The notes: generated by a model not told the origin, from the sequence alone. A DNA stretch of 64,000 nucleotides from a virus (IMGVR_UViG_3300011399_000002:55871-119870); one strand, 5' to 3'; counted from the first letter of the stretch, positions 28,229 to 52,922 are shown. Program-made: numbers and translations.

Positions 28229-28431
28229 GTGCATACTATGAACTCATTAGAACTGAGTTTATCAACTTTGAGTATTCAGGTGAGAGTATTCAAGTTTGTC
28301 TAAATTGTGGTATAGAGATACAGGATGGTGAACGTATTCTAAGAGAAGTATTTAGAGTTATGGGGCATGATGATCATCTAGTATCTCTATGGCATATTCC
28401 TTGTTGGTATAGTGTGGAGACTGTAGAGTGA
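28225..28431 (+). CDS. hypothetical protein
   Basis: 68 aa, ATGA overlap. Confidence 0.4.
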   Translation: MSAYYELIRTEFINFEYSGESIQVCLNCGIEIQDGERILREVFRVMGHDDHLVSLWHIPCWYSVETVE

Positions 28432-29090
28432 AAGAATATCACAAGATTGACTCAGTATATAAGAGAGATGAAAGAGGAAAGTTTCTACTTGGTGAATTCT
28501 CTCGTCCTGAGTTTGAGTATCTAAAAGACCTTCCTTGGCTATGGACAGAGAAGATTGATGGTACTAATATCAGGGTAATGTGGAAGCCTGATGCTGCTTT
28601 TCCTGATGAGCCCTATATTAGTTTTGGAGGTAAGACTGAAAATGCTCAAATTCCCACTAAACTATATAGCCATCTAGCAACAACGTTTGCTCCATTGATG
28701 AATCAACTAATTGATACATTTGGAGAGACAGAAGTTTGTCTTTATGGTGAGGGATATGGAGCAGGAATTCAGAAGGGTGGAGGAAACTACTCTCCTGATC
28801 AAAAATTCATTCTCTTTGATGTAAAGATCGGAGATTGGTGGTTGACTAGGGAGAACGTAGAGGATATTGGGCGTAAGTTAAATATTCCTGTTGTACAACT
28901 AGGTCCACGCTATACTCTTTCTGAGATGATTGAGTATGTTGAACAAACTGCTAGGCTTCTAGAAGGAGCCCCATTTTCTAATATTGGAACAGCAAAAATT
29001 GAGGGTTGGGTAGGAACACCTGCTATTCCTCTATTTGCACGTAATGGTGATCGTATTATTACCAAGGTTAAGTATAGGGACTTTAAGTAA
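28428..29090 (+). CDS. RNA ligase-like nucleotidyltransferase (Rnl2-type)
   Basis: Motif I WTEKIDGTNIRV (KxDGxN), downstream YGEGYGAGIQKGG; size of an Rnl2 adenylyltransferase domain. Confidence 0.55.
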   Translation: MKEYHKIDSVYKRDERGKFLLGEFSRPEFEYLKDLPWLWTEKIDGTNIRVMWKPDAAFPDEPYISFGGKTENAQIPTKLYSHLATTFAPLMNQLIDTFGETEVCLYGEGYGAGIQKGGGNYSPDQKFILFDVKIGDWWLTRENVEDIGRKLNIPVVQLGPRYTLSEMIEYVEQTARLLEGAPFSNIGTAKIEGWVGTPAIPLFARNGDRIITKVKYRDFK

Positions 29091-29867: not shown

Positions 29868-30314
29868 ATGGATACTAGATACTACTGGCATATCCACCAT
29901 GAAGAACTAGTAGAACCATTAATGGTTGGTCAGAATATAGATAAGCGGGTATACTACATAAATTGGGGCAAACCAGTAGACCAAAGACCATTAAGACTAC
30001 ATCTTATGAGGCCAGCATATATACCTGAGGATATACAAGGGAAGATAAGACGTAATGGTCTAGGTACCATTCTATATGACCCTGATTATAGTAGTGTGCG
30101 CACAGAGATAAATGATCTTCATGCCAAACAGTGTGATCCTCTTTGTCCTTTTGCTCTAGAAGATGAAAGATATCCAGATGATCCAGAAACGATATTCCAT
30201 TACCGTGATCTAGATGGTAATTGGTGTCTATCTGGTAGAGAGAACAGTAGAACATCAGACTGGGCGCAAGAGAATACATATAAAGAACCTATAAGAGAGA
30301 GTATAGAGACATAA
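29868..30314 (+). CDS. hypothetical protein
   Basis: 148-aa ORF, last gene before cassette array. Confidence 0.45.
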   Translation: MDTRYYWHIHHEELVEPLMVGQNIDKRVYYINWGKPVDQRPLRLHLMRPAYIPEDIQGKIRRNGLGTILYDPDYSSVRTEINDLHAKQCDPLCPFALEDERYPDDPETIFHYRDLDGNWCLSGRENSRTSDWAQENTYKEPIRESIET

Positions 30315-30520
30315 TAAGGGAGATAGGGGTAGTATCTGTATAGAAGGTACTGTCAGTGAAACTGTTGCCGATATAAAAAGCGCACAGTTACGCACAAAAT
30401 TAGCCAAATGAATAAAAACAAAGCCATTTATGACACAAAATCGTGCATAAATGGCTTTTTTATTGCATTATGTGTGCAATCCCTATTTCATTGTATATTC
30501 CCTTCCATATCCATATCCGT

Positions 30521-30540
30521 GAGCCAATGGAGCGTGGGTT
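30521..30540 (+). repeat. GAGCCAATGGAG cassette motif copy 1
   Basis: GAGCCAATGGAG-cgtgggtt-ATATAA-GGTACTA; downstream 8-bp hairpin ATATAAGG/CCTTATAT. Confidence 0.6.
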
Positions 30541-30591
30541 ATATAAGGTACTACCTTATATTCACCATATTTTGATCCATATCCTTATTTT

Positions 30592-30610
30592 GAGCCAATG
30601 GAGAGAGGGC
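30592..30610 (+). repeat. GAGCCAATGGAG cassette motif copy 2 (divergent 3-prime half)
   Basis: TGAGCCAATGGAG-agagggca-TTTAGC. Confidence 0.5.
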
Positions 30611-30837
30611 ATTTAGCAAGGGCTGGGTATAAATTCGTGCACAAATCTCATAAAAAGTGTCATTTTACTGTATATGCCGATACAAAATAAAAATCGAATT
30701 AGAATGGAGTCCAGTTACGTAGAGTATATACAAAAAAGAACCATATCCATATACTATGGTATATACCTGCACCTTCATCTGTTGAGATTAACCCTGGCCC
30801 ATTCTTGCTGACATTAGTGCTTTCAATAAAGAAGCAT

Positions 30838-30866
30838 TTGACACCATATTCGACCTGTGATATAAT
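30838..30866 (+). promoter_or_regulatory. consensus sigma70 promoter for cassette-1 gene
   Basis: TTGACA-17 nt-TATAAT, followed by ~100-nt leader with GTACCGC...GCGGTAC hairpin. Confidence 0.65.
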
Positions 30867-30971
30867 CAGGGTACCGCAGATGCGACAGGGCGGTACTTAA
30901 CAACTGAATAGGGTCAGGAATTAGTGGGACTGATTGAACCTGTGATTTCACAAAGAAAGGTTCAACCTGAA

Positions 30972-31268
30972 ATGACCACCTACACTATCGCCAAGATTCG
31001 CGTCGTTACTCCCACCGAAACCATGCGCGAGAAGCATCCAGATCGTGCATTCACTGTCTTCGGTCAATTCTTCAATGAGAAGGGTGACAAGTTGTCGATC
31101 ACTAATAAGGTGATCACAACGGAAGACATTCTGCATCCTGAATTCAACATCGATGTTGCAAAGGGATTGCTCACAATTCATTCTGGCGAAAGGGGACGCA
31201 AAGCAGCGGCTTCAATCACACAGAATGACGTTAACGACATTCTCACTGCAATCCGCAAGTCCAAGTAA
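30972..31268 (+). CDS. cassette-1 small protein, paralog family B
   Basis: Start at MTTYTIAK aligns with MALVTYFV of ORF 31756; shared GERGRKA and LTI blocks. Confidence 0.5.
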   Translation: MTTYTIAKIRVVTPTETMREKHPDRAFTVFGQFFNEKGDKLSITNKVITTEDILHPEFNIDVAKGLLTIHSGERGRKAAASITQNDVNDILTAIRKSK

Positions 31269-31378
31269 ATTCAATTAGTTTCACTTCTCCTGATCCTATT
31301 TAGTTGTTAATCATTCAGTTTCAATTAAGTAATTTAATAAAGTAAATTAAATTAAATTTCAATTTATTTACATAAGCC

Positions 31379-31398
31379 GAGCCAATGGAGTGGGTTCC
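31379..31398 (+). repeat. GAGCCAATGGAG cassette motif copy 3
   Basis: GAGCCAATGGAG-tgggttcc-ATATTG-GGATACTA. Confidence 0.6.
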
Positions 31399-31592
31399 AT
31401 ATTGGGATACTACATTGAAATTCATATCCTGTTCCATAAAATGAATTAGATTTGGTCGCGTTTACATAAACGAATTACAATTCGGATGCGGTTACATATC
31501 CATATCCATATCCATGCACCAATTGGTGAGTGCCAATCTTTCTCCGATTGATGATGCCGCGAAGGTTGCGAAGCCCTCCCAGCGGTGTAACC

Positions 31593-31629
31593 GAACCGCA
31601 ACCTTACCGCTACCCTACCGCAATTGACG
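31593..31629 (+). promoter_or_regulatory. ACCGCAA direct-repeat / TTGAC element (cassette 2)
   Basis: gaACCGCAACCttACCGCtaccctACCGCAATTGACg ~125 bp upstream of ORF 31756. Confidence 0.4.
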
Positions 31630-31755
31630 CGAGAGGCACAATCCGCGAAGATACACCTATCACCAACGAGGAACGCTCCTCCCGGTGAGAACCTTAACAA
31701 GAGAATAGGAACAGGGGACCTACCCGCCGAACAGGCAGAAAGGTAAGGTCCACCA

Positions 31756-32124
31756 ATGGCGCTCGTTACGTATTTCGTTGACAAGATGCGCGCGGTTCCC
31801 CCGACTGGTAAGGTCGCGGAGAATAACCCCGAGCGTGTCCTCACCGTCAATGGCGTTTTCTACAGCACCAAGATTGACGAGAACGGCAATCGGGTTCGCA
31901 ATGAGAAGATGTCCTACACTACCAAAGCCGTCGATATCGAAGATGTCCTCGCAGGGGCGGAAGTCGATCTAGACGCCGGTACGCTCACCATTCCCGCAGG
32001 GGAGCGGGGACGCAAAGCCGATCCGGGGCTGGACGCTAATAGCGTCACGTCGCTACTCAATTCCATCCGCAATCCAATTCCTGAGCCCGAGCCGACACCG
32101 GCACCGGCCACCAAGAGCAAGTAA
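31756..32124 (+). CDS. cassette-2 small protein, paralog family B (GC-rich copy)
   Basis: Paralog of 30972-31268; AGGTAAGG RBS; C-terminal PEPEPTPAPA tail. Confidence 0.5.
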   Translation: MALVTYFVDKMRAVPPTGKVAENNPERVLTVNGVFYSTKIDENGNRVRNEKMSYTTKAVDIEDVLAGAEVDLDAGTLTIPAGERGRKADPGLDANSVTSLLNSIRNPIPEPEPTPAPATKSK

Positions 32125-32250
32125 CTAATTGGTCCCCTGTTCCTATCTCTCACCTAATCCTATTCTGTAACGTAATTGTAACGTAATTGCAACCATTACA
32201 AATACATTACAATTTCATTACAAAATCGAATTAGAACAGGCGTTCGTTAC

Positions 32251-32270
32251 AGCCAATGGAGTGAGGACCC
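32251..32270 (+). repeat. GAGCCAATGGAG cassette motif copy 4
   Basis: cAGCCAATGGAG-tgaggacc-CTGTAA-GGGGACTA. Confidence 0.55.
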
Positions 32271-32325
32271 TGTAAGGGGACTATGATCATCAGAATGATG
32301 AGAATAGGCCAATCCTTCGGATAGT

Positions 32326-32370
32326 CCGCAACCTTATCGCAACCATATCGATACCGAACCGCAATTGACA
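32326..32370 (+). promoter_or_regulatory. ACCGCAA direct-repeat / TTGACA element (cassette 3)
   Basis: CCGCAACCttatCGCAACCatatcgatACCGaACCGCAATTGACA. Confidence 0.4.
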
Positions 32371-32439
32371 TAGGGAACAGGAACAGGCATAGTACGCATA
32401 TCAGGTAAGTCACCTGAGCCACGGAGAAAGTAACAGAAT

Positions 32440-32697
32440 ATGGCAAGATATACGGAACCTGAAATCTCTACCGATCGTATCCATGATGACGGACCGTCAT
32501 TCGATATCACCCGGACAGAGATTGTCGGAACGGTTCACCTCTCCACAATGGGGAAGGATAGTCCCGTTAGCGTAGCGTTCGGGATCATCGCATCCTATCT
32601 CAATGAGAACCTTCGTTGGGACGGCGATACCGAAATCTCATTCACGGTTCCTGAGGGTCATACCTTCACAATCAACGCTACTCCCGCTCGTCAATAG
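32440..32697 (+). CDS. cassette-3 small protein
   Basis: 85-aa ORF after AGGTAAGT...GGAGAAAG RBS region. Confidence 0.45.
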   Translation: MARYTEPEISTDRIHDDGPSFDITRTEIVGTVHLSTMGKDSPVSVAFGIIASYLNENLRWDGDTEISFTVPEGHTFTINATPARQ

Positions 32698-32802
32698 CCT
32701 GTAGGATCAACGTTCCTGCGCCTATCTCCCCGATGCAATCTACAAAGTAAATTGTTGATTGAAACGAGAGATTGCATCAAATGGGCGCAGGAATAAATCC
32801 TA
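32698..32802 (+). terminator. long imperfect hairpin (terminator-like) after cassette-3 ORF
   Basis: Nested inverted repeats TGTAGGAT/ATCCTACA, TTCCTGCGCC/GGCGCAGGAA, GATGCAATCT/AGATTGCATC. Confidence 0.35.
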
Positions 32803-32995
32803 CACAATGTCTTAAAGATAGACGAAAGGTAGGGTGATTAATATCCGACGATAGATATAGAGTACGCTAGGTAAATGTACTGGAAATGCGTACACTGGTA
32901 GTCAAAAACCTGATACTACCATCCGAATAAGTAAATGCATACTAATACAAATGAATAACTATTCATAAAAATGAATAAATATACATAATTGAATT

Positions 32996-33015
32996 GAGCC
33001 AATGGAGTAGGAACC
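32996..33015 (+). repeat. GAGCCAATGGAG cassette motif copy 5
   Basis: GAGCCAATGGAG-taggaacc-TATATG-AGGTACT, flanked by AATTGAGCC/GGCTCAATT inverted repeat. Confidence 0.6.
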
Positions 33016-33216
33016 TATATGAGGTACTGGCTCAATTGTTGAGCCTGAGATTGAAAGCGCTCAATTGAATTACAAATTGAATTGCGTTCAGGTTCGAATT
33101 CGAATTGAATTGCATTCTTGTTCTGTTCTATACGCACAGGCGCCACGCGCACGCACGCGCACGGACCTATAGGATGCGCCCCGGAGAAAGGTTGCGATAG
33201 GCGAAATCGTTAGCTA

Positions 33217-33256
33217 CCGAACCGCAACCATTTCGTAACCGTACCGCAATAGACAA
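33217..33256 (+). promoter_or_regulatory. ACCGCAA direct-repeat element (cassette 4)
   Basis: ACCGaACCGCAACCatttcgtAACCGtACCGCAATAGACA. Confidence 0.35.
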
Positions 33257-33343
33257 TCCTCTCGCAGAGGAGCATGATGTGCACATCAGATCGATACCCG
33301 ATCTGAGCCGGGAGGCAGGAAAGCCTCACAGTCAACAGAAAGG

Positions 33344-33649
33344 TTGGCACATAGGATGGGCGTCTTTCTCGATCAGGCGGTTCTGGTTCTGGAACTGGCA
33401 CCGGACGATACGCTGGCCGCGTGGACTGAGGACTACCTCAATCGCGCTCCGGCATTCTTCTCCCCCGACGCCGATCCGTCGCAGGTGATGGCAGACTCTC
33501 TGCTGGGCAACCTGTTGGAGAACGAGAACCGGCAGCGCGGGAACGCTGCTACGGCTCGCAAGGTCTTCGCCGTCGTGAATGACGCGATTGGCACCGGCTA
33601 CGCCTCCTATGAGGATTACCTCGCGTCGATCCTCGACAACGGCTTCTAG
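33344..33649 (+). CDS. cassette-4 small protein
   Basis: 101-aa ORF, GC-rich. Confidence 0.4.
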   Translation: MAHRMGVFLDQAVLVLELAPDDTLAAWTEDYLNRAPAFFSPDADPSQVMADSLLGNLLENENRQRGNAATARKVFAVVNDAIGTGYASYEDYLASILDNGF

Positions 33650-33657
33650 CCTAGCCT

Positions 33658-33688
33658 AGGGGAGAGGGATGCATAATCCCTCTCCCCT
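33658..33688 (+). terminator. strong hairpin terminator after cassette-4 ORF
   Basis: AGGGGAGAGGGAT-gcata-ATCCCTCTCCCCT, 13-bp perfect stem. Confidence 0.5.
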
Positions 33689-33781
33689 ATACAATGCATA
33701 TACAATGCATATGTATACTGTATAATCATACATGCATGAATATGCATGATGATGAATAATTATGCATCGAACATTTGTTCT

Positions 33782-33800
33782 GAGCCAATGGAATGAGAAC
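33782..33800 (+). repeat. GAGCCAATGGAG cassette motif copy 6
   Basis: GAGCCAATGGAa-tgagaacc-ATGATG-AGGGACTA. Confidence 0.55.
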
Positions 33801-33964
33801 CATGATGAGGGACTATGGATGAATTGAACAAGCGTTCGAATTCGAATTCGAATTGGATTTCGTTCTTGTTCCCGTTCTAGTGCATGGCTATGGATGGGTA
33901 GCATGGATTGGATGAGCATGGATGAGCCATGACCCCATGAGGGTAGGGCTCATCTATGAGAATG

Positions 33965-33998
33965 TAACCCAATCGCAACCTTTCTGCTACTTGACAAT
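33965..33998 (+). promoter_or_regulatory. CGCAACC / TTGACA element (cassette 5)
   Basis: aaCCCAATCGCAACCtttctgctacTTGACAatg. Confidence 0.35.
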
Positions 33999-34068
33999 GA
34001 CGCATGGTGCGGTACGATGGGCGTAGCCCATCGAGGTTCGATGGTAGATGGTAGAAAGGGTTAGATAG

Positions 34069-34401
34069 ATGATCTACTTTGAGAATGCGAAGCGTACAAT
34101 CGATGCGACAAACGTGCCGTTTCTCAACGGATCGAACGTCGGACCCGGCTTTATGATCGATGACGCCTATACGATGGAAAGTGAGCGCGCACGGTACAGC
34201 GAAGCGCACGATACCTTGACGCTTTGGGTCCAGCGCAAGGAATTCGCAGGATCGTACGCGAAGCGCAACATGCATGATCTGCTCTACGTGTTGGGTGACG
34301 AATTCGACCGCAACGAATTCGAAGCGTTCCTCGCCTATGAGAATGAGACAGATATGATGGTGACAGCCTACCGTCATGAGATGACAGTCGCGGGGTTCTA
34401 G
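34069..34401 (+). CDS. cassette-5 small protein
   Basis: 110-aa ORF, RBS GAAAGGGTTAGATAGATG; preferred over antisense ORF 33877-34407. Confidence 0.45.
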   Translation: MIYFENAKRTIDATNVPFLNGSNVGPGFMIDDAYTMESERARYSEAHDTLTLWVQRKEFAGSYAKRNMHDLLYVLGDEFDRNEFEAFLAYENETDMMVTAYRHEMTVAGF

Positions 34402-34439
34402 CCTCACCAGTCAAGGTGAGGGATGAGCAATCATCCCTC
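34402..34439 (+). terminator. tandem hairpins after cassette-5 ORF
   Basis: CCTCACC-agtcaa-GGTGAGG and GAGGGATGA-gcaa-TCATCCCTC. Confidence 0.4.
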
Positions 34440-34473
34440 ACCCATCCATCCTCACATGAAAGGTGAGAATAAG

Positions 34474-34560
34474 ATGATCGATTACACCATTCCGATCCTA
34501 TTGGTTGCGATGCTCGCGCTAGCCGCGCTATGGAGTAGCGCGCGAGCCTATCGCGGGTAA
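34474..34560 (+). CDS. small hydrophobic peptide
   Basis: 28 aa MIDYTIPILLVAMLALAALWSSARAYRG with GGTGAG RBS; below ORF-track cutoff. Confidence 0.3.
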   Translation: MIDYTIPILLVAMLALAALWSSARAYRG

Positions 34561-34570
34561 TCAGGAACAG

Positions 34571-34605
34571 CTAGGGGATTGTATATCTATACAGTCCCCT
34601 AGTAT
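34571..34605 (+). terminator. hairpin CTAGGGGA...TCCCCTAG
   Basis: 8-bp stem, 16-nt loop, ends the cassette array. Confidence 0.35.
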
Positions 34606-34609
34606 TCAA

Positions 34610-35440
34610 ATGAATACTTATGCATAATATGACTTTGCCCGACTGTTACAGTCTACAAATAGTGGAACCAAAATCTGCAACTTTTTAGATAACTCTATTC
34701 CCATCATAAATGATGGTAACGCTCTAAATTTACATGGTAATATCGACCAAGGCAAAAGAAAAGCCCTACTAGGGATCAAAAGAGTCCGGGGGGAAACTCT
34801 CAATCAACCTAGTAGGGCTTTCCTGTGTAGGGCTAAAAATTGATCAGCCGTGAGACAGAAGTCTTTAGCACTACACAGGATCAGCGTCACAATTGGACGC
34901 CCATATTAAGTTAGGTGACTGTCGTTTATGACAGCCGCTATCCGTTAGGATAGTTAGGTGGGGAGTGGGATTCAAGTTTACCCACATGACTCGACAGGAC
35001 TACTTTTCTCAAAGAAGTATTTACGAGTCAACCAACCGTTAGCCTTGACGCGAATTCATTCTCTTTGATGCTATCGTAAAGTTTGAATTCAGGCAACGCT
35101 TCGGCTCCGGTCAAAGAGCCTCCGTCATACTTTTACCTACTGCACTACTTGTTTAAGGTAATGTGTTTAGGTTTGACTAATCTCAGAAGTTTTACCCTTG
35201 ATTAGCCGACGTTATCTGCGTCCGATTGTACGTTACGCGACTGACCCTGTGGCAGTCACTTTCCGTCATCCCCCTGCAACCGCCGCTAAGCGGCTGCATT
35301 GGTTGTACTATAGGGCACCTGAGCGATCCCGTCAAGTTAAGGTTCCTTAACCGAGTTTCAGGAGCGTGTAAGTTTGAGTAAAATTGCGCTTGACCGCAGA
35401 ATAGACCCGTGGTAGGATAGTAGGACGTACCCGGTATGGG
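34610..35440. other. ORF-poor structured non-coding region
   Basis: No credible ORF; 14-bp hairpin AAAGCCCTACTAGG...CCTAGTAGGGCTTT (34762-34821), CCGCCGCTAAGCGGC palindrome, many shorter stems. Confidence 0.3.
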
Positions 35441-35659
35441 TTGAGAGGGGAGGAGGGGAACAGGGCCAAATTGTCGCATGAAAAACGCTGTTCTCGTTGT
35501 AGGAAAGACTTTCCCCAAACAGAATCCTTCTTCTACGTCAGCCGTCAAGGACGTAAAAAGGCTCCCGGCTTCCAGTCTTATTGTATCCCTTGCACTAAGA
35601 CTGTGAATGCGGAAAACAAACTCCGAAGAAAGATAGTACAGTACAAAAGAGGGGTTTAA
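35441..35659 (+). CDS. hypothetical basic zinc-ribbon protein
   Basis: CSRC...CIPC, Lys/Arg-rich, 72 aa. Confidence 0.35.
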   Translation: MRGEEGNRAKLSHEKRCSRCRKDFPQTESFFYVSRQGRKKAPGFQSYCIPCTKTVNAENKLRRKIVQYKRGV

Positions 35660-35735
35660 GCCGTGCAGACGGTTAAGTGTTCTGTTAGAACAGTTACTCG
35701 CGCCACTCCTCATCTTTGTAACTATAGAACGTCCC

Positions 35736-36062
35736 TTGCTTCCTGTGTCAGTTGTAGACAAGTGTTCTGCACTCGACACAGGAACAAGCACCGTGATTGA
35801 TGAAATCTTTGCCCTTCCCGGTATATCTTGGTATTACGAGAAGGGTGAGAAGGTAATCGTTAAGGCTCTTGATGATGATATGGAGCCAATCGGTGAAGCT
35901 CTTATGATCTATTCGGGCCAGAATGTAAACGTTGCTGTCAATGAACTAGAGCAAGTCACAATACCCTACTTCATTGATGTTAACGGCTCTCTTATGGGAA
36001 TTGACTATCCCTATCAGGAGATTATTCAGATATCTCGCCAACAGGAACACAACCCCACTTAG
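35736..36062 (+). CDS. hypothetical protein
   Basis: 108-aa ORF. Confidence 0.4.
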   Translation: MLPVSVVDKCSALDTGTSTVIDEIFALPGISWYYEKGEKVIVKALDDDMEPIGEALMIYSGQNVNVAVNELEQVTIPYFIDVNGSLMGIDYPYQEIIQISRQQEHNPT

Positions 36063-36315: not shown

Positions 36316-36969
36316 TCAGATTTCATATTTCTCTGTCTCCCACACGATCACTCTCTGTGTAACATTGTGCCTTTCTTTGCCCTCGCCCTTTTCTACCCTG
36401 TCTTCTCCTTCCATGTAGTACCAAGTATTTAGTTTCCAAGGAAGTTTAGTGTTGTTGAAATGTTCTTGTAGGATGGCTGGGGTGAATCCTGTTTTGTGGT
36501 ACTCACCCTCATGCTTTTGATGACCATAAATGATCGCCATATCCCATTTGGTAGTCTGATGCTCCAGCCACCAACGACAGGCCCATTCCAGATCGGGCAC
36601 AACGACCTGCAAGCGGCCACCACGCCTCAGTAATCGGTGCCACTCCCTTAGGGTCGGCACGACTTCAAACCTGCCTACGTGTTCAAGGGCATTCGATGAG
36701 AAGATTGCTTCTACACTACCATCGGGTAGCGGAATATCCCACATCGTTGCTTTGATATCAGCGTTTGTGTGCAAGTCTACTGCTGTAAACTTATCATCAG
36801 AGGATAAGCCACCCGCACCTATATCAAGCATTAGTGGTTGCTTGAATTGAGATGGGTCTAATGTCTTGTGTACAGGTTCAGGGTTTCCATCACTTCCTAT
36901 ATGATAACCGGGGTTGTATTTTGGATCACAGCAATCCTCACAGGTTATGTATCTAGGCTTATCAGCCAT
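36316..36969 (-). CDS. class I SAM-dependent methyltransferase
   Basis: Motif I LMLDIGAGG, motif post-I AVDLHTN, LRRGGRLQVVVPD. Confidence 0.65.
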   Translation of the reverse strand: MADKPRYITCEDCCDPKYNPGYHIGSDGNPEPVHKTLDPSQFKQPLMLDIGAGGLSSDDKFTAVDLHTNADIKATMWDIPLPDGSVEAIFSSNALEHVGRFEVVPTLREWHRLLRRGGRLQVVVPDLEWACRWWLEHQTTKWDMAIIYGHQKHEGEYHKTGFTPAILQEHFNNTKLPWKLNTWYYMEGEDRVEKGEGKERHNVTQRVIVWETEKYEI

Positions 36970-37478
36970 GCCTCAAACTCCTTATTGAAGAGGACTTCTT
37001 CATGACGATTCTTGCGCAGTAAGTGTATGGCATCACGGGCAGTCATTCCCTGCTTCATCAGCGTTCGAACAACAACAAGTGAAGAGCGGTTCATCCCCGC
37101 CTGACAGTGTACCAAAACGTCAAGATTAAGGTCAAGTGCTGCCTTTACCATATCAGAGGCTTCTTCTACGGCTTCTACATTGACATTTGGGCCATCGTAT
37201 AGCCGATATTCCTGTAGGATTGTTCCTGCGGTCGTTTTATAGCGCCCCCAAGGGTAAAGTGACACTACAAGATCGAAGTTATCCCCAAGGTGCAGATTCT
37301 CCACGTATCCTCCATGCCAGAGATTTCCTCTTACATGGGTGATGATTGGAACCGTCGTTGATCGATCACTATTCTCATAATAGAACGTAATGTAGTGATT
37401 AAACGGGTCAGCACCATCTGGTGCGATCCATCCCTCCGTTTTATTGACTGTATTCTCGCCTTGATCTAGTTTAGGCAT
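36945..37478 (-). CDS. CX5R phosphatase (PTP/dual-specificity family)
   Basis: Signature VLVHCQAGMNRSSLVV (HCxxGxxRS P-loop). Confidence 0.6.
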   Translation of the reverse strand: MPKLDQGENTVNKTEGWIAPDGADPFNHYITFYYENSDRSTTVPIITHVRGNLWHGGYVENLHLGDNFDLVVSLYPWGRYKTTAGTILQEYRLYDGPNVNVEAVEEASDMVKAALDLNLDVLVHCQAGMNRSSLVVVRTLMKQGMTARDAIHLLRKNRHEEVLFNKEFEAWLISLDT

Positions 37479-38319
37479 GGGCTTTCTCCCTTATTGCATC
37501 CATCTTTGCTCTCCACTCCGTTGATCGGTCTGTTTTGATATCTTTTAATGGAACGATAACTAACTTTTCATAGCCCCGGTTATTGTCTATGATCGAGTCT
37601 GTTGTCATTACCCAATTGATGTACGTACTGCCTGAGAAAATCTTACCCTCAAATATTGTATTCTCACAGTGGGCGACAACCAGTACGATATTCCTAAAGC
37701 CTAGATCGTGCAGTTTCTCAGCGGCTAGAACGAACGTTCCACCCTTTGAACACAAGTCATCAACAATGATGACCGTATCGCTGGTCTTATTGCCTAGAAT
37801 CTCCAAACTAAGGATTCTACCTGTCGCAAAATCACGCTTTTTGAACCCAACTAGCGAATCAGGCGATTCTAGGCTTTCATAGCGCTTCTGTGCCCCAGCA
37901 TCGGGGAAAAATATCTGCGAACCCGGAAGATGCAGATATTCCTTGAAAAGATGCTCTGTTACGTTCACAACTTGGCATTTGTTGAGAAGGGCAGGAGTTA
38001 CGTCGGAATGAGGCTCGTAAACGACGACCTTGTTCCACTCCATCAAATTGATCAATTTCGTGATCGATTTGAGCGTGAAAATATACTCATCTGAATTACG
38101 ATCCATACGCGAGTAAGGAAAGTAAGTGATGTGTAAATCGGCTGGGAACCAAAGAGCCTTCCTGACTAGAAAAAGTCGGAGTAAATCTTCGTCCCCCTCG
38201 TACTTTAGCGTTACCTTATTTATTGCTTGTTTATGTTCAGAAAAGAAGGGTTTTGGTATATTTACCTCCCCATTGGGGAAATGACCGAATTTTATCTCTT
38301 GATCGTTGAATAGGATCAT
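37471..38319 (-). CDS. ribose-phosphate pyrophosphokinase (PRPP synthetase)-like protein
   Basis: PRTase-type motif VIIVDDLCSKGGTF and Prs N-domain; 282 aa. Confidence 0.75.
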   Translation of the reverse strand: MILFNDQEIKFGHFPNGEVNIPKPFFSEHKQAINKVTLKYEGDEDLLRLFLVRKALWFPADLHITYFPYSRMDRNSDEYIFTLKSITKLINLMEWNKVVVYEPHSDVTPALLNKCQVVNVTEHLFKEYLHLPGSQIFFPDAGAQKRYESLESPDSLVGFKKRDFATGRILSLEILGNKTSDTVIIVDDLCSKGGTFVLAAEKLHDLGFRNIVLVVAHCENTIFEGKIFSGSTYINWVMTTDSIIDNNRGYEKLVIVPLKDIKTDRSTEWRAKMDAIREKAHA

Positions 38320-39800
38320 ATCCGAGCCCTAATTTCCGCTAGTGTGTCTTCACGAACGAGTTTACCGTCAACAAAGAGGTCTTGTAGCAGATCATCCTCT
38401 ACTGCATCGCGCTCTACTTCGGTTAGCCCATCGCGGAAGCCAATTCCCCAAGGGGTCTTCCAAACAGTTACCATGCCTGTTTGGGACTTCTTGATGCCAT
38501 TGTCAGTGATAGGGTCTTTGAATAGGAATTTCTCTTCGCCCGCAATACGAGCGTATGTTGACTTTAGAGCAAAGGAGAAGGTATCGCGTGTGTTGTACTG
38601 ATAGGTGAAGCTACCAATACCGTATACCATGTTCGTTGATGCGAAGCCTTTTGTCTCTAATTGACGGCAAATCTCATCACAACGCTCTAGAGTAATGGCA
38701 TCACCGTAAATAACACCGATATGTGGGTCCAATTCCTTGTAACCCTTCTCATTGACCGTGCCGCCGAAGATATCCCAAAGGATTTCAACAACACCACGAA
38801 CAGCGTCAGGGTTGTCAGAAAGGGGATCGCCACAGATGATCTTGATAGGATCGCCTGAATCTGGTCGAATAACAACCTTACCATCGCGGGCAAGAATGTC
38901 AGGCTTTAGTGTGGCAATTACCCCATTTAGGACTTTCCACAGGTCCCAAGTGTCAGAAACGATGGAAACGTACCCGTTTGGATACACATTTGTTATAATG
39001 TTACGATAAGAGTCTAATTCGTTCTGTCCATATGCGCACATAACAGAATGCTCTGTGGCAGGGATGGAAGTACCGACTAACTCTTCTTCGATATTTGCCC
39101 CATAGAATTCCTCTAGGAACAGGATACCGGGAATAGAGTCGGTACCAACGAATGAGAGCAGGTGTCCTGCTGCACTGTACTTTGCAGTTTGCAGGGAACC
39201 CATTCCACGCATTGAGAAATCATGGCCTTGGAACGGGACAAAATCCTTTGATCCACCAGTCTTAAAAGCCCAGCCCAAAAGAAGGCTCTTAAAACGCTTT
39301 GCCAGTGTCGCACTTGTGCACATTTGCCAAAGCGAACACGACATAAGCGTTTCTATGTAGTTTGTAACCCAAAAGAATTCAGGAAGTGTGTTCTCAACAG
39401 TGAGAAGAGGAGTACGAATTTTAACGCTGGTTCCTTCGGGTACTGCCTTAATTCTGAGGGGCAGGTACCCTAACCTGTGGAGTGCTGCAATGTGATCAGA
39501 GTAAGGCTCTTCAACACCTAACGTTGATCGTATAACCCGCTCATACTCTTCAAGAACGTCCCTTTCAGGACGAGAGAAGAAGTTGTCATTAAAGTAGTCA
39601 ATTAGGTACTCTTTTACAAAGGCTTGGAAGCCGAAGGCAACAACAGAGTCTATATTGGGAATTCGTGAAGCCCTTGGTGTCCAAGTAGAGTATACCTTCT
39701 CTGTACCTTGCGGATATTGCTCCCTGTGTGAAACCTTGTAAAAATCACACAGCAAGGTTGCTGGGTATATATACTTCTCAGTTGTTCTTTGTAGCGTCAT
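38316..39800 (-). CDS. nicotinamide phosphoribosyltransferase (NAMPT/NadV)-like protein
   Basis: 494 aa, NAPRTase-family size and conserved blocks (GSKDFVPFQGHDFSMRGM, PDSGDP). Confidence 0.7.
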   Translation of the reverse strand: MTLQRTTEKYIYPATLLCDFYKVSHREQYPQGTEKVYSTWTPRASRIPNIDSVVAFGFQAFVKEYLIDYFNDNFFSRPERDVLEEYERVIRSTLGVEEPYSDHIAALHRLGYLPLRIKAVPEGTSVKIRTPLLTVENTLPEFFWVTNYIETLMSCSLWQMCTSATLAKRFKSLLLGWAFKTGGSKDFVPFQGHDFSMRGMGSLQTAKYSAAGHLLSFVGTDSIPGILFLEEFYGANIEEELVGTSIPATEHSVMCAYGQNELDSYRNIITNVYPNGYVSIVSDTWDLWKVLNGVIATLKPDILARDGKVVIRPDSGDPIKIICGDPLSDNPDAVRGVVEILWDIFGGTVNEKGYKELDPHIGVIYGDAITLERCDEICRQLETKGFASTNMVYGIGSFTYQYNTRDTFSFALKSTYARIAGEEKFLFKDPITDNGIKKSQTGMVTVWKTPWGIGFRDGLTEVERDAVEDDLLQDLFVDGKLVREDTLAEIRARI

Positions 39801-40126
39801 CGCTTCACCTTCCTTAGTGCTTCATCTGCTTGATTGATTACTGATTCTGATGTGGGGCCATAAAAAGCCAGACCCATTGCCCAAGGCCACTGTATATTGC
39901 TATCGTCTTCAAAATGCTCTAAGGCTGGAGTAGCCTCTAGGGAGTAACGTTCCTCAGGATTTGCAGTAGCAGCCCTGTAAAGGAATAGGTCAGTAAACTC
40001 AGGAAACCGGGGCGCAAGGTCATCAATAGTCAAAGATACTGACTCTTCACCCGTTATATACACCTTTATAACTTCATCACTCACAGTTTTAATTTCTCTA
40101 GTGTATCCATTACAGACTTTGCACAC
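39797..40126 (-). CDS. hypothetical protein
   Basis: 109 aa, ATGA overlap. Confidence 0.4.
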   Translation of the reverse strand: MCKVCNGYTREIKTVSDEVIKVYITGEESVSLTIDDLAPRFPEFTDLFLYRAATANPEERYSLEATPALEHFEDDSNIQWPWAMGLAFYGPTSESVINQADEALRKVKR

Positions 40127-40341
40127 TACTTTACCCCTACTTCGCTTAGACAGTAGACACCGACTTTTACTTCTGCCACCCCTGAACTTCTAACTTCGAT
40201 ACAATCGGGCGCAAAGGTCCAAGGATAGGCTACAACAGAAGTAGGGGGTGGTCTAAAAAACGTAAGTAGCGCAAGCACAATAAAAATAATAACCCCAACG
40301 AGTATAACTACTAGGCAACCCCACAGGCCATCGTCACTCAT
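40126..40341 (-). CDS. small membrane protein
   Basis: LWGCLVVILVGVIIFIVLALLTFF TM helix. Confidence 0.35.
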   Translation of the reverse strand: MSDDGLWGCLVVILVGVIIFIVLALLTFFRPPPTSVVAYPWTFAPDCIEVRSSGVAEVKVGVYCLSEVGVK

Positions 40342-41390
40342 ATATACTCATTTACTCTTGTATGATTCTCAGAGGCAGTTGATGGACTTATACGTATGAA
40401 CTCAGCCCTATCACGTAATTCGGATAAGTTTTCTGCTCCGACGTAAGACATTCCACTTCGTAAGCCTCCCATAAGTTGTTTAAGTACCGCCGATACTGGT
40501 CCTTTGTAATCCACGAATCCAGATATGCCCTCCCTAGTAAAGAGTGCATCATTTGTACCAAATATAGACTGTCCTTGATAACGCTTGACTCTTCGTCCAC
40601 GTCCAGTATCAATAACCTCTCCGGGGGCTTCGTCAGTCCCGGCCAAAAGACTACCTAGCATTACAAGGTCAGCACCGGCTGCTAATGCTTTTACGATATC
40701 TCCTGCGCTTCTTATGCCTCCATCCGCGATAATAGGTATATGGTACTTTCTAGACTCCTGATAGCATTCCGCAATAGCAGATAGTTGCGGTACTCCGATC
40801 CCTGTAACAATTCTTGTTGTGCAGACTGATCCCGGTCCAATTCCGATTTTAATAGCATCCGCTCCTGCTGCAATAAGGTCAACTGTGCCTTCTGCTGTTG
40901 CAACATTACCAGCAACCACTCTGGCTGATGGGAAAAGGTCTTTAACTCTTTTGACAAGATCAATTACCTTTCTATGGTGTCCATGTGCTACATCAACGCA
41001 GACAATATAGGGGGCAAGATTACAGGAACCATCTATATGCCTGATAAAGTCTAGGCTTTCTTTCTGATCCCTTGTACCAACAGAGAATGCTACAGGGTAG
41101 CCCTCTGAGTAAAGGGTCTTAATATCACCTATTTGATCTGCTGGGGGCATGAAACGATTTAATATTCCTAAACCCCCTGCGTTGTGCATGGCGATTGCCA
41201 TTTCACGGCCAGTAACAAAATCCATGTTAGCACTGATGACAGGAATGGACAGATTCAGTCCTAAAAAGTCCTGAGACAGATCGATATCCTGTCTTGACTC
41301 TATTTCTGAATATGCTGGACGTATGAGTACATCATCGAATGTGAAGTAATCTTTCAATTCTAAATCCCTTCTGTTTTTGCATCCATGCAA
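40338..41390 (-). CDS. GMP reductase / IMP dehydrogenase-family enzyme (no CBS insert)
   Basis: Catalytic loop [14 protein letters not shown], 350 aa like GuaC. Confidence 0.75.
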
Positions 41391-41652: not shown

Positions 41653-42219
41653 CTAATACCACCCCACCCTATTGTGAAACGTTAACGCTCTGCAAGCAGA
41701 GCCATATCTTGAATTCACGTAACGAATTCCCCACCTTACCTGTGTAACAGGGTTAGTACGCCAATCACTACCGGCACTTTTCATCTTGCTACCGGGGAGT
41801 GCCTGAGGAATTCCGTAGGCTCCACTACTCTTATTGTGTGCCCAATATCTCCAAGAACTCTCTCGCTCCCATAGCGCTTCAATACAAGAGAACTGTGAGG
41901 CTCCTAGACGGTCCAGAGCGTACCTTTTTGCTAGGGCCTTACTTCCACCCCCTTTTATAGTTACCGGGGCTCTCCGTGGCTCCTGTGGCGTCACAGAGGG
42001 TTGTGGCTTTGGTTGCTTGACCCGAATCTTAGGTCTGGTGGGTTCCGGTGTCTCTACGACCGTAATATACGGCTCCGTGTCTTCTGTTGTACGATTAATT
42101 TGTGTGAATGTAACACTTGGCAGAGGTTCCCACTTCTCTGTGGGTTGTTTACCGCTAGCCTCAGTACAGGCAACAAATAAAACTGCCAACGTGGCAGTTC
42201 CTAAGGTTCTTACTCTCAA
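41653..42219 (-). CDS. secreted lipoprotein with transglycosylase-like domain
   Basis: Signal peptide + LFVAC lipobox-like, Pro-rich linker, C-terminal ERESSW...SGAYGIPQALPGSKM. Confidence 0.5.
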   Translation of the reverse strand: MRVRTLGTATLAVLFVACTEASGKQPTEKWEPLPSVTFTQINRTTEDTEPYITVVETPEPTRPKIRVKQPKPQPSVTPQEPRRAPVTIKGGGSKALAKRYALDRLGASQFSCIEALWERESSWRYWAHNKSSGAYGIPQALPGSKMKSAGSDWRTNPVTQVRWGIRYVNSRYGSACRALTFHNRVGWY

Positions 42220-48305: not shown

Positions 48306-48390
48306 GGAAGGTATCCGAACGGTGAGGAAGCTGTTTGCTAAACAGTCGGGCAGAAATGTCTTGCGGGTTCGACCCCCGTGCCTTCCGCCA
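48306..48390 (+). tRNA. tRNA-Ser (anticodon GCU)
   Basis: Acceptor GGAAGGT/GCCTTCC, anticodon stem GCTGT/ACAGT loop TTGCTAA, long variable arm, T-loop TTCGACC, CCA encoded; D-region atypical. Confidence 0.6.
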
Positions 48391-48462
48391 TTTTATCAGA
48401 GGTGCGCCCAAGATAAAAAGAGTATAGTAGGTTAATTAATCTAGGCTTATAGAGAGGAAAAT

Positions 48463-49461
48463 GTGTTAGGGTTTCTAGCGTTTCTAGTCGTAGTGCTTAT
48501 TTTTGGAGCGATTACGGCATTTTTTATCCTCAGACGCTTAAACTATGAGCGTAAGTGGGCAACACTAAATGAATACGGTAATAAAGAAAAGGTAGAGCGT
48601 GATCCGCCTAGCATTGTACCTGCGATTGTTTTTGCAGTCGTTGGGTTTGTCCTAATCATAGGAACAGGCGGAATCAGAGAGATTCCAGCGGGCCACGTAG
48701 GGGTTATTACTTCATTCGGTAGAGTTACCGAAGGAACATTACCATCGGGTCTAACATACGTTATGCCCGTCGTTAATCAGGTTGTCATTCTTGACACCCG
48801 TGTCCAGTCTTACGAATTTACTGACCTACAGGGCGCAACAAGCGATACTCAGGCAGTTACGCTTTCAGGTTCAGTTAACTACCGAATCGATGGAGCAACG
48901 GCTTGGAAGTTGTATCGTGATGTTGGTGAAGACTTTGCAGTCAGAGTTTTCCAGCGTCCAGCAGATACGGCACTAAAGACAATTACACCTAGATATACTG
49001 CTACTGATATCATCGGTAAGCGTGACGAAATTGCTTCATTAGCAACGCAACTTCTCCGTCCATCCGTTGAGCAGTACGGTATCTCTGTAGAGGCATTCTA
49101 TGTCTCTAACATTGGCCTAAATCAAGCATTCCTAAATGCAGTTGAAGCGAAGCAGATTGCTAATCAGCAAGTGCTAACTCAGAAGCAGATTACCGCGCAA
49201 AAGGAAGAGCAGAAGAAGCAAGCAAAGATTGATGCAGAAGGACGAGCAGATGCCGCTAGAGCAGCAGCAAATGGTGAAGCCGATGCAATTCGATCACTAG
49301 CAGATGCACAGGCAGATGCAAACAAGTTGCTAAATAACTCACTAACACCTGAGTTAATTCAGTATACATTGATCAACAAGTTAAGTCCTACGATTAAGAC
49401 TATGATTCTTCCTGATGGACAGAATTTCATCCTTGATCCTAAGGCACTTCTTGGTCAGTAA
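48463..49461 (+). CDS. SPFH/band-7 (stomatin/prohibitin-like) membrane protein
   Basis: N-terminal TM helix then band-7 core and Ala/Gln-rich coiled coil. Confidence 0.7.
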   Translation: MLGFLAFLVVVLIFGAITAFFILRRLNYERKWATLNEYGNKEKVERDPPSIVPAIVFAVVGFVLIIGTGGIREIPAGHVGVITSFGRVTEGTLPSGLTYVMPVVNQVVILDTRVQSYEFTDLQGATSDTQAVTLSGSVNYRIDGATAWKLYRDVGEDFAVRVFQRPADTALKTITPRYTATDIIGKRDEIASLATQLLRPSVEQYGISVEAFYVSNIGLNQAFLNAVEAKQIANQQVLTQKQITAQKEEQKKQAKIDAEGRADAARAAANGEADAIRSLADAQADANKLLNNSLTPELIQYTLINKLSPTIKTMILPDGQNFILDPKALLGQ

Positions 49462-49464
49462 TAG

Positions 49465-49552
49465 GGAAGGTTGGCTGAGTCTGGCTTAAAGCGATAGTCT
49501 TGAAAACTATTGGTGTAACAACCCGTGGGTTCAAATCCCACACCTTCCTCCA
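49465..49552 (+). tRNA. tRNA-Ser (anticodon UGA)
   Basis: Perfect acceptor GGAAGGT/ACCTTCC, anticodon stem ATAGT/ACTAT loop CTTGAAA, long variable arm, T-arm GTGGG-TTCAAAT-CCCAC, CCA. Confidence 0.75.
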
Positions 49553-49820
49553 TTTATTATGAAAGGGAAAACAATGGCTAACGTAACTGCGGACGATTTG
49601 GTTCCCACATTCTGTGGAGTGTGTGGTACTCGTTTGGTAGAGTTTAGAATTGCTTCGGTTTCGGGTTATGACATTTATACTGGAACGCCCCTCAGCAATG
49701 AGAGTGTTTCTCGATCTTGTCCAAACCCAACGATCACAAAGAGTGGTCGATTTAGCGCACCGTCAACTACCCAGCATCGAACCTATCGGTTTGAAAAGGA
49801 TAGTTGGGTCTAATTACAGT

Positions 49821-49894
49821 GGGGTTATCGTTCAACGGGAGGACGACTGCTTTGCACGCAGTAAATCAGGGTTCAATTCCCTGTAGCTCCACCA
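49821..49894 (+). tRNA. tRNA-Ala (anticodon UGC)
   Basis: Anticodon stem ACTGC/GCAGT loop TTTGCAC, T-arm CAGGG-TTCAATT-CCCTG, acceptor with two G-U pairs, CCA. Confidence 0.55.
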
Positions 49895-49901
49895 ATAAGT
49901 T

Positions 49902-50099
49902 ATGAAGATTGAGTTAATCACAAGAGAAGAATACGAGAAGCGTACCAAGTATTGGATTCGTAAGTACGAGTGGTTCTGTGGTGTATGCGGTAGATTAGAG
50001 GGTAAAGAGTGGACGAGAGTCTATGATGAACCTAGACCTGATGCATGGCACGAACGTAACGAGATAGACGAAAACCATATTTGTTACGGTTGTTACTAA
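49902..50099 (+). CDS. hypothetical zinc-ribbon protein
   Basis: CGVCG ... CYGCY, 65 aa, between two tRNAs. Confidence 0.35.
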   Translation: MKIELITREEYEKRTKYWIRKYEWFCGVCGRLEGKEWTRVYDEPRPDAWHERNEIDENHICYGCY

Positions 50100-50174
50100 G
50101 GCTCCGAACCTAAACGGACAAGGGTCTGTCTGCAAAACAGATTTTAGTGGGTTCGACTCCCACCGGAGTCTCCA
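50100..50174 (+). tRNA. tRNA-Cys (anticodon GCA)
   Basis: 75 nt, acceptor GGCTCCG/CGGAGTC, anticodon stem TCTGT/ACAGA loop CTGCAAA, T-arm GTGGG-TTCGACT-CCCAC, discriminator U, CCA. Confidence 0.65.
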
Positions 50175-50206
50175 TTACTTGAACCTCCTAGAAGCAAGGG
50201 AGTACA

Positions 50207-50372
50207 ATGGGAAGACCAAGGAAACCTAAGGTACTTGAAGAGGAAGGAATTGTTCTTCCTCCTAGGCCCAAGCCTCAAATATTGGATGGCAATTTTGGCT
50301 ATCCACGACCAGCACCTAAACCAAGTCAGACGAAAAAGGTGCGGTATAAGAAGGAAGAGTCTGAAAATTAAT
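50207..50372 (+). CDS. small basic protein
   Basis: 55 aa MGRPRKPKVLEEEG...; below ORF-track cutoff. Confidence 0.3.
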
Positions 50373-50407
50373 GTGACCTAAAAGGTCTACTAAAGGAAGG
50401 GAAAATT

Positions 50408-51937: not shown

Positions 51938-52075
51938 AAATCATAGTCCTTGTCCTGCTCTTCGGAATAGGAACGTTCTTGATCGGATTTGGGTTTGGTC
52001 GTTGGGGGTTGGAAACAACTATCGATGACCAACAGGCCCAAATCGAAGCACTTACTGGCGATCAAAATATATCTT

Positions 52076-52135
52076 AGTAGTGTAGTTTACGGTTACTTCT
52101 TTGCTTGAAACGAAATTAACACCGTACACGTTTTA
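52076..52135 (+). ncRNA. conserved-motif hairpin (element A of TAGTGTAG family)
   Basis: TAGTGTAGtttACGGTTACTTC...; TACGGTTA/TAACaCCGTA stem; 17 nt upstream of tRNA-Glu. Confidence 0.3.
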
Positions 52136-52151
52136 ATCTCTAGGATTTAAT

Positions 52152-52226: not shown

Positions 52227-52237
52227 AAGACAACTTA

Positions 52238-52700: not shown

Positions 52701-52795
52701 CGCTCACCCAGTAGACGAATTCATACAAGGCAGAACGTAAGGGTTGCAACCGCCCGCCTATGAAATGGTCTACCGGATGCGCGACGGCGCATCAA

Positions 52796-52915: not shown

Positions 52916-52922
52916 ATATCGC

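Follow-up and report, generated by a model that had tools for sequence, protein, structure and literature searches.

The stretch of viral DNA considered here (IMGVR_UViG_3300011399_000002:55871-119870; 64,000 nucleotides (nt), hereafter the window) is part of a phage genome, about 120 kb in size, that was assembled from a metagenome. Between positions 36,316 and 39,800 it carries four minus-strand genes, which encode, in the direction of transcription, a protein resembling nicotinamide phosphoribosyltransferase (NAMPT), a protein resembling phosphoribosyl pyrophosphate (PRPP) synthetase (Prs), a CX5R-type dual-specificity phosphatase (DSP), and a class I S-adenosylmethionine (SAM)-dependent methyltransferase (MTase). 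Coordinates are positions in the window unless another locus is named, and the labels Namat, Adps, DSP, MTase, and IMPDH (an IMP dehydrogenase-like gene lying farther upstream) are used throughout. An earlier reading of the sequence, the original prediction, had described the four open reading frames (ORFs), which are present at the coordinates it gave and lie on the minus strand, and the folds it named were confirmed by profile searches; it was also correct in naming NAD+-directed counter-defense as the context of the pair, and rightly posed the choice between canonical NAD+ salvage and the NAD+ reconstitution pathway NARP1. The pair is very probably NARP1, i.e., Namat and Adps, and not canonical Prs and NadV, because it bears the published signatures of both enzymes (the selectivity clamp of Namat and the conserved residues of Adps) and resembles the enzymes of phage SPbetaL1.

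The NAMPT-like and Prs-like proteins

The NAMPT-like protein belongs to the families NAPRTase (PF04095, 6e-43), NAMPT_N (1e-9), and phrog_448 (7.5e-191). Its top matches in the PDB are the SPbetaL1 Namat structures 9W5W and 9W5X solved by Lan et al. (PMC12774641), which score 725 bits; for NAMPTs from human, rat, and bacteria the score is about 232 bits. Its identity to SPbetaL1 Namat is 64%. The SPbetaL1 enzyme, originally called Nampt, is a Namat that prefers ADP-ribose pyrophosphate (ADPR-PP) as its substrate and makes NAD+ directly (Osterman et al., bioRxiv 10.1101/2024.02.11.579819). Its selectivity clamp is composed of a loop containing R40 and a helix motif with the adenine-stacking residues F392 and Y396, and works beside a shared catalytic core that includes R306 (PMC12774641). 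In the window protein, R40, F392, Y396, R306, and H245 of SPbetaL1 are retained as R46, F398, Y402, R312, and the catalytic H251, respectively. R46 provides the stacking residue of the clamp loop, which is Arg, Lys, or Tyr at the third position, and residues 396-406, GSFTYQYNTRD, are the same as in SPbetaL1 and fit the motif GSX-Phi-X-Phi-X-Phi-TRD. The Nampt of the T4-like Aeromonas phage SW69-9, whose gene has no Adps adjoining it, served as a negative control: its clamp loop is shorter, and GGGLLQMVNRD stands in place of the motif.

The best match of the Prs-like protein among 50,697 phage records is SPbetaL1 Adps (43-44% identity, 89% query coverage), an enzyme that was originally called Prs, but is an ADP-ribose (ADPR) pyrophosphokinase inactive as Prs (bioRxiv 10.1101/2024.02.11.579819). 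The window protein matches phrog_619 at 1.4e-62 and stays under the cut-offs of all models for Prs: it scores 58 bits with the canonical model TIGR01251 (cut-off 113) and 26-48 bits with the PRK equivalogs of Prs (cut-offs 296-536), and no match to Pribosyltran_N was found in the Pfam scan. Its best PDB match, in a set that did not hold the Adps structures 23bm, 27fn, and 23ca, is the distant canonical Prs 4twb at 56 bits. For the comparison of residues, we used the ICP1 Adps gene from GenBank as the reference, together with SPbetaL1 Adps. In the structure of ICP1 Adps solved by Liu et al., R87, H121, D161, D212, and D213 serve the acceptor and K185 is catalytic (PMC13586617). F18, R87, H121, D161, K185, D212, D213, and C215 of ICP1 correspond to F14, R71, H104, D140, K160, D187, D188, and C190 of the window protein, and K160 is also the equivalent of SPbetaL1 K162, which was mutated in the original study. 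ICP1 D216 is Ser in the window protein and likewise in the active SPbetaL1 enzyme. As a family signature, Adps has lost the alpha11-alpha12 module with which canonical PRPS ends (PMC13586617); in the window protein, the match to TIGR01251 reaches position 276 of the 309 in the model, that to phrog_619 ends at residue 253, and a 29-residue C-terminal tail (residues 254-282) follows.

The arrangement of the two genes points in the same direction. NARP1 has been defined operationally as a Prs-like Adps gene close to a NAMPT-like Namat gene (Osterman et al.), and here the two are adjacent, the stop codon of Namat and the start codon of Adps sharing the sequence ATGA (a 4-nt overlap), so that the translational coupling described in the original prediction is borne out. 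An Adps gene stands beside Namat in 78 of the 80 closest Namat loci in IMG/VR, in the order Adps-Namat in 71 of them and Namat-Adps in seven. The window module therefore shares with SPbetaL1 NARP1 (Osterman et al. 2024) the same two adjacent, co-transcribed enzymes and the tested catalytic and selectivity residues; it differs in its inverted order, with Namat first, which is that of the minority (7/78 IMG/VR loci, and also all close relatives), and in lying within a longer chain of overlapping genes that also includes IMPDH, DSP, and MTase. Given homology and residue conservation with the SPbetaL1 and ICP1 enzymes, whose activities have been measured, the window pair is expected to be active in the following way. 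Cleavage of NAD+ by a host NADase effector of the TIR, SIR2, DSR, or SEFIR type leaves ADPR and nicotinamide; Adps would move pyrophosphate from ATP to the 1'' position of ADPR to form ADPR-PP, and Namat would then exchange the pyrophosphate for nicotinamide, regenerating NAD+ directly. The module would thereby defeat abortive-infection defenses that are based on NAD+ depletion.

The original prediction had held that sequence alone cannot distinguish canonical salvage from NARP1. That is no longer the case, since the signatures published in PMC12774641 and PMC13586617, along with the similarity to the SPbetaL1 enzymes, now decide for NARP1, and the two comparisons it had proposed, of family profiles and of active sites, both gave this outcome: Namat scores 725 bits as against about 232 bits, Adps falls below the Prs cut-offs, and the conserved sites are the Namat clamp and the Adps residues, not canonical sites only. 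The structural signatures of Namat and Adps thus seem sufficient to tell NARP1 from a Prs/NadV annotation. The pathway itself has already been described, and occurs in about 4.3% of sequenced phages. What is new is the module in an uncultured phage lineage with a genome of about 120 kb, which is thereby added to the confidently assigned examples; the lineage has no close cultured relative, and a nucleotide search of the operon against the 50,697 phage records gave no match. The main value of the present analysis lies in the correct annotation of the pair and in a testable, weakly supported lead concerning the phosphatase, as discussed below.

Three related systems may be compared with the window module. 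NARP2 (Nampt and Nmnat, as in Vibrio phage KVP40) and NadV salvage have in common with it a NAMPT-fold enzyme that joins nicotinamide to an activated ribose, but the window has no Nmnat partner among its 59 scanned ORFs, the partner gene is Adps, and the adenine clamp of Namat is present. Identity with NARP2 or NadV salvage was rejected on these grounds. A Pfam scan of 59 window ORFs, which outside the operon were mostly at least about 110 amino acids (aa) long, detected no domain of the NMNAT, Nudix, or Macro type. NARP1-AP (Adps, the Poa1p-like Macro-domain protein Adpp, and Namat, as in Vibrio phage Gary) is NARP1 extended with an ADPR-1''P phosphatase encoded no more than two genes away; it makes up 15% of operons and overcomes the aRES defense (bioRxiv 10.64898/2026.01.28.702374). 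It resembles the window in having a phosphatase gene inside the NARP1 transcription unit. The window phosphatase, however, has the DSP (CX5R) fold and not the Macro fold, its gene lies downstream of both core genes, and relatives of the module do not retain it, whereas Adpp is present in its 15% of operons. Identity with NARP1-AP was likewise rejected, because neither the flanking genes nor the scanned window ORFs contain a Macro domain and the neighboring gene encodes a PF00782 (DSPc) protein. In the NARP1 locus of mycobacteriophage DyoEdafos, the accessory gene for RyDEP, a cyclic ADPR (cADPR) glycosidase, feeds ADPR to the pathway (bioRxiv 10.64898/2026.05.28.727677). In the window, by contrast, no RyR-domain protein was detected, and the small ORFs near Namat (109 and 71 aa) match no family.

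The gene chain and its phosphatase

Table 1. Genes of the chain around the NARP1 pair and the Macro-domain genes found upstream of DSP homologues in two other loci
Feature	Sequence	Position	Strand	Length	Remarks
MTase (class I SAM-dependent)	window	36316-36969	minus	217 aa	PF08241
DSP (CX5R dual-specificity phosphatase)	window	36945-37478	minus	177 aa	contains VLVHCQAGMNRS; PF00782
Prs-like protein, very probably Adps	window	37471-38319	minus	282 aa	NARP1 enzymatic step 1; contains VIIVDDLCSKGGTF
NAMPT-like protein, very probably Namat	window	38316-39800	minus	494 aa	NARP1 enzymatic step 2, encoded first
109-aa ORF (orf109)	window	39797-40126	minus	109 aa	coupled to Namat; no family match
71-aa hydrophobic ORF	window	40126-40341	minus	71 aa	between IMPDH-like gene and 109-aa ORF; no family match
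IMPDH-like gene	window	40338-41390	minus		no CBS subdomain; upstream end of chain; PF00478
Transglycosylase (SLT)	window	41653-42219	minus		upstream of IMPDH-like gene
Macro-domain protein	NiceHouse gene 256 (L002)	4302-4772			PF01661, 27 bits (cut-off 22); annotated hypothetical
Macro-domain protein	L058	7420-7908			upstream of DSP homologue

The chain of overlapping or abutting ORFs reaches farther upstream than the four genes of the original prediction, through the 109-aa and 71-aa ORFs to the IMPDH-like gene, and the complete order in the window is SLT, a 70-aa ORF, IMPDH, the 71-aa ORF, the 109-aa ORF, Namat, Adps, DSP, and MTase (Table 1), with a promoter-like site at 42288-42259 ahead of the transglycosylase gene. 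The stop codon of orf109 and the start codon of Namat share ATGA, as Namat and Adps do. Adps and DSP overlap by 8 nt, with the Shine-Dalgarno sequence GGGAGA upstream of DSP, and DSP and MTase by 25 nt, with AAGGAG upstream of MTase. The genes are translationally coupled.

DSP matches the family DSPc (PF00782) at 2.6e-14 (53.6 bits; cut-off 33.5) and phrog_10650 at 4e-29. In the active-site loop, HCQAGMNRS, the Asn that precedes the Arg is invariant, and the general-acid Asp is D95; across 38 homologues D95, H124, C125, Q126, G128, N130, R131, and S132 do not vary. In an AlphaFold2 model (pLDDT 91.7), the nearest folds are those of DUSP22/JSP-1, VHR, poxvirus VH1, and the archaeal Tk-PTP (TM-score about 0.6). 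With a score above the gathering threshold, an HCX5R(S/T) loop, and the general-acid Asp, the protein is assignable to the dual-specificity phosphatases, and it is predicted to be a catalytically complete, atypical DUSP-like enzyme. It shares the common fold, the HCxxGxxR(S/T) loop, and the general acid with the atypical DUSPs (DUSP22/JSP-1 and VHR), VH1, and the actinophage proteins annotated as "PTPc tyrosine phosphatase" (phrog_10650; 40 records), to which it is 33-43% identical, and is distinguished from them by its loop HCQAGMNRS with the invariant Asn and by the location of its gene inside a phage accessory island. Candidate substrates are a host or phage phosphoprotein, an RNA end, or a small molecule. 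We found no paper that links NARP1 with dual-specificity or tyrosine phosphatases.

Relationship of the phosphatase to the NARP1 pair

A comparison of related loci (labelled L0xx or L1xx; the DSP survey covered 80 metagenomic loci, of which 28 had a length of 5 kb or more) separates DSP from NARP1 in both directions. The closest DSP homologues on long contigs (L031, L032, and L033; 47-54% identity) have no Adps or Namat gene within 7 kb. L032 is syntenic with the window: its PolA, DnaG, RNR, and HNH genes are followed by the divergent series SLT, 123-aa ORF, 108-aa ORF, IMPDH, and DSP, with no NARP1, and compared with it the window carries an insertion between IMPDH and DSP that consists of the 71-aa and 109-aa ORFs, Namat, and Adps. 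The three closest NARP1 lineages, in which Namat is 80-83% and Adps 58-61% identical to the window proteins, have no DSP. Their gene orders are IMPDH, a 95-aa orf109 homologue, a 58-aa ORF, Namat, 72-aa and 40-aa ORFs, Adps, MTase, and an orf86 homologue in L042/L043; Namat and Adps alone in L044/L045; and Namat, a 94-aa ORF, Adps, and IMPDH, with no MTase, in L046. In the wider survey, no DSP, IMPDH, or MTase homologue adjoins NARP1 in the 80 IMG/VR NARP1 loci (1.24 Mb), where one weak DSP-like match of 40 bits lies 7 kb from NARP1, and a single one of the 80 metagenomic DSP loci (L051) has NARP1 within its flank. The actinophage DSP homologues examined (Reindeer, Estes, Wildcat, and NiceHouse) do not adjoin NARP1. 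In Gordonia phages, the slot after MazG and before the primase/helicase gene is occupied by DSP in PhinkBoden (L127) and by Adps-Namat in BrutonGaster (L128), and looks like an accessory-gene hotspot.

These distributions are best read as DSP and NARP1 traveling independently, DSP not being a conserved partner of NARP1. NARP1 sits in a variable accessory island, divergent from the replication genes (HNH, class II RNR, and PolA), and recombination in this island would shuffle IMPDH, NARP1, DSP, and MTase cassettes, so that the adjacency seen in the window might be a product of the shuffling. Because related islands hold differing combinations of these genes, DSP and MTase are regarded as independent cargo abutting NARP1. 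We put the probability of this reading as a whole, a known NARP1 module with the phosphatase and methyltransferase as unrelated island neighbors, at roughly 0.75. In this lineage, NARP1 would thus share a recombining island with a CBS-less IMPDH, a DSP, and a methyltransferase.

Several observations weigh against that reading. DSP sits inside the chain of overlapping ORFs, and because it overlaps both Adps (8 nt) and MTase (25 nt), it is almost certainly co-expressed with NARP1 as part of one transcription unit. An MTase gene is found downstream of Adps in L042/L043 as well (59% identity). NARP1 operons are known to gain enzymes that feed the pathway, namely Adpp and RyDEP. In L051 (Ga0157369_10000083, 131 kb), the Adps-Namat pair is preceded, at a distance of 1.5 kb, by a DSP homologue (50% identity) in an island spanning 7887-14046: DSP (7887-8441) is followed by two ORFs, tRNA-Tyr, tRNA-Cys, Adps (9900-10781), Namat (10774-12252), a PnuC-like NMN_transporter gene (12153-12998), and a NadR-like AAA_28 gene (13003-14046), with 15 tRNAs in the locus, and therefore appears to hold NARP1 and a NARP3-like pair side by side. 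Finally, when the 83 ORFs that neighbor DSP homologues in 40 loci were scanned for domains, a Macro-domain gene was detected immediately upstream of the homologue in two of these loci, the Rhodococcus phage NiceHouse and L058 (Table 1), which we counted as one lineage because their flanking ORFs are homologous. These two hits show that the detection of Macro domains works; the ORFs found between Adps and Namat elsewhere, an HNH/NUMOD4 homing endonuclease gene in L035 (6659-7804), which is an IMG/VR phage, and an unannotated 142-aa ORF in L034, gave no Macro control.

One possibility that would account for these observations is that DSP supplies the pathway, converting a phosphorylated ADPR into ADPR for Adps and thus acting as a non-homologous analogue of Adpp. 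Candidate substrates would be ADPR-1''P from the aRES defense, 2'-phospho-ADPR from the cleavage of NADP+, and decay products of ADPR-PP, such as the ring-opened form of the cyclic phosphate that arises from it spontaneously. ADPR-PP is reported to decay to ADPR-cyclic-phosphate (bioRxiv 10.1101/2024.02.11.579819), which possibly needs recycling, and a computational prediction by Iyer et al. (2022; PMC9503650) assigns to the cysteine phosphatases of the rhodanese-phosphatase superfamily the processing of phosphates linked to ADPr in conflict systems. The statement in the original prediction that the phosphatase and methyltransferase stand outside the described pathways has, for the phosphatase, been overtaken by the Macro-domain Adpp of NARP1-AP, but the DSP fold found here is a different one. 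Its further suggestion that the phosphatase might act on ADP-ribose phosphates finds no support in comparative genomics, given that DSP and NARP1 travel independently. The three closest DSP homologues and the three closest NARP1 lineages each lack the other component, and the co-localization in none of 80 NARP1 loci and one of 80 DSP loci fits, by a rough estimate, the chance clustering of accessory genes. Moreover, no DSP-bearing mycobacteriophage is among the matches listed, 60 of the 136 actinophage Namat records; in NiceHouse NARP1 and DSP are far apart, Namat being at 8599-10050 of the genome; and the fold neighbors of DSP are protein phosphatases. Two independent NAD- or ADPR-linked contexts of DSP in about 40 would, again as a rough estimate, exceed the clustering of accessory genes only marginally, and for that reason we consider a supplying role improbable. 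If true, it would mean that NARP1-AP is not confined to Macro domains, provide the first function for the actinophage "PTPc" phosphatases, which are widespread, and reveal a new class of enzymes supplying NAD+ reconstitution, while the present evidence suggests that the neighbors are incidental.

Another possibility, to which we give somewhat less credence still, is that DSP serves in RNA repair or tRNA maintenance as an RNA-end phosphatase unrelated to NAD+. The Asn-Arg pair of loops such as HCQAGMNRS is typical of the RNA 5'-phosphatases of the superfamily. DSP homologues are found near tRNA arrays in actinophages and L051, near an RtcB ligase gene in Estes, and in NiceHouse directly before the gene for a tRNA nucleotidyltransferase (CCA-adding enzyme), and the window phage itself has a CCA-adding-like enzyme, an RNA ligase, Ro60/TROVE, and 10 tRNAs. 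To our knowledge, however, RNA triphosphatases of the DSP fold lack the general-acid Asp, which as D95 is invariant in the DSP homologues, and the top 50 structural matches of DSP consist of DUSPs, VH1, and PTPs and do not include BVP, PIR1, or Mce1. Besides, tRNA arrays mark accessory regions generically, and the tRNAs of the window lie 11 kb from DSP. The alternative for the pair itself, canonical salvage in which a true PRPP synthetase and NadV/Nampt would make NMN for conversion to NAD+ by a host or phage NMNAT (the logic of NARP2), is very unlikely: both proteins have the generic Prs and NAMPT folds that their usual annotation follows, the NAMPT-like protein passes the NCBIfam model PRK09198 at 561 bits, and Namat enzymes keep some PRPP-dependent NMN synthesis in vitro (PMC12774641; bioRxiv 10.1101/2024.02.11.579819), but the selectivity clamp is complete in the window protein and absent from the true phage Nampt of SW69-9, Namat structures score threefold above NAMPT structures, the Prs-like protein aligns best to an Adps that is inactive as Prs, and no NMNAT was found among the window ORFs scanned.

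Remaining neighbors and other features of the phage genome

MTase matches PF08241 (Methyltransf_11) at 2e-8 (35.2 bits; cut-off 21.2), its glycine-rich motif I reads LDIGAGG, and its AlphaFold2 model (pLDDT 86.4) has a Rossmann-like fold with only generic class I methyltransferase matches (TM-score about 0.5), all of which identifies it as a class I SAM-dependent methyltransferase. Homologues in L040 (from the contig that also contains L032) and L041 stand beside large genes of structural type, away from NARP1, and a link of MTase to NAD+ chemistry is not supported. No match to either MTase or the 109-aa ORF was found in cultured phages. MTase is 33% identical to the methyltransferase domain fused to an Anp1-like glycosyltransferase at 59739-61223, a paralogous protein encoded in a plus-strand glycosyltransferase/methyltransferase cluster at 53382-63101. 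The cluster also contains genes for an O-methyltransferase (53382-53981), an FkbM methyltransferase (55833-56459), a GT2 glycosyltransferase (56444-57100), and a beta-helix protein (61737-63101), and may serve the modification of virion or cell-surface glycans.

The IMPDH-like gene matches PF00478 at 6e-105, and its product scores 287 bits with IMPDH (7xlo) and about 200 bits with GMP reductases, which puts it nearer to IMPDH by score, though not decisively. Homologues with 64-72% identity flank NARP1 in L042 (3019-4044) and L046 (7798-8793), and others with 51-54% identity flank or neighbor DSP in L032 (5945-6985) and L031, so that a CBS-less IMPDH-like gene adjoins NARP1 in the window, L042, and L046. 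IMPDH uses NAD+, and a functional link of this gene to NARP1 is conceivable. A 50%-identical counterpart of the 109-aa ORF occupies the same place between IMPDH and Namat in L042/L043 (L042:4058-4345); the ORF has no Pfam, PHROG, or NCBIfam match and could be an uncharacterized NARP1-associated gene. The 71-aa ORF has no family match, and no homologue of it was seen in the related loci examined. L046 also shares with the window a gene family for a YAcAr (YspA-related SLOG) protein, encoded at 10084-10473 on the minus strand of the window and at 9445-9840 of L046, three genes downstream of NARP1-IMPDH. SLOG domains are predicted binders of nucleotides or ADPR derivatives.

Beyond the island, the window phage encodes a class II RNR, PolA, and ThyX. 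A gene for a Ro60/TROVE + vWA protein amid tRNA genes, an RNA ligase gene (PF09414), and a gene for a CCA-adding/poly(A)-polymerase-head enzyme lie at 50408-51937 (plus strand), 48306-53273, 28428-29090, and 18261-18962, and together appear to form a toolkit for the repair or quality control of RNA. At gathering thresholds, the Rfam scan of the window returned tRNAs only, with no Y-RNA-like family. A 70-nt tRNA at 52818-52887 on the plus strand has the anticodon TCA ("tRNA-SeC" according to ARAGORN; 49 bits with the Rfam tRNA model), and is possibly a phage-borne opal suppressor; two tRNA-Ile(TAT) genes are located at 17490 and 58396. The region from about 30300 to 36000 contains few ORFs and has a slightly raised GC content (0.47), with only short, mutually overlapping ORFs on both strands, no tRNAs, and no Rfam matches at gathering level. 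A Fic/DOC protein (20667-21203) and a calcineurin-like metallophosphoesterase (4534-5571), both encoded on the plus strand, are possible host-manipulation or anti-defense proteins.

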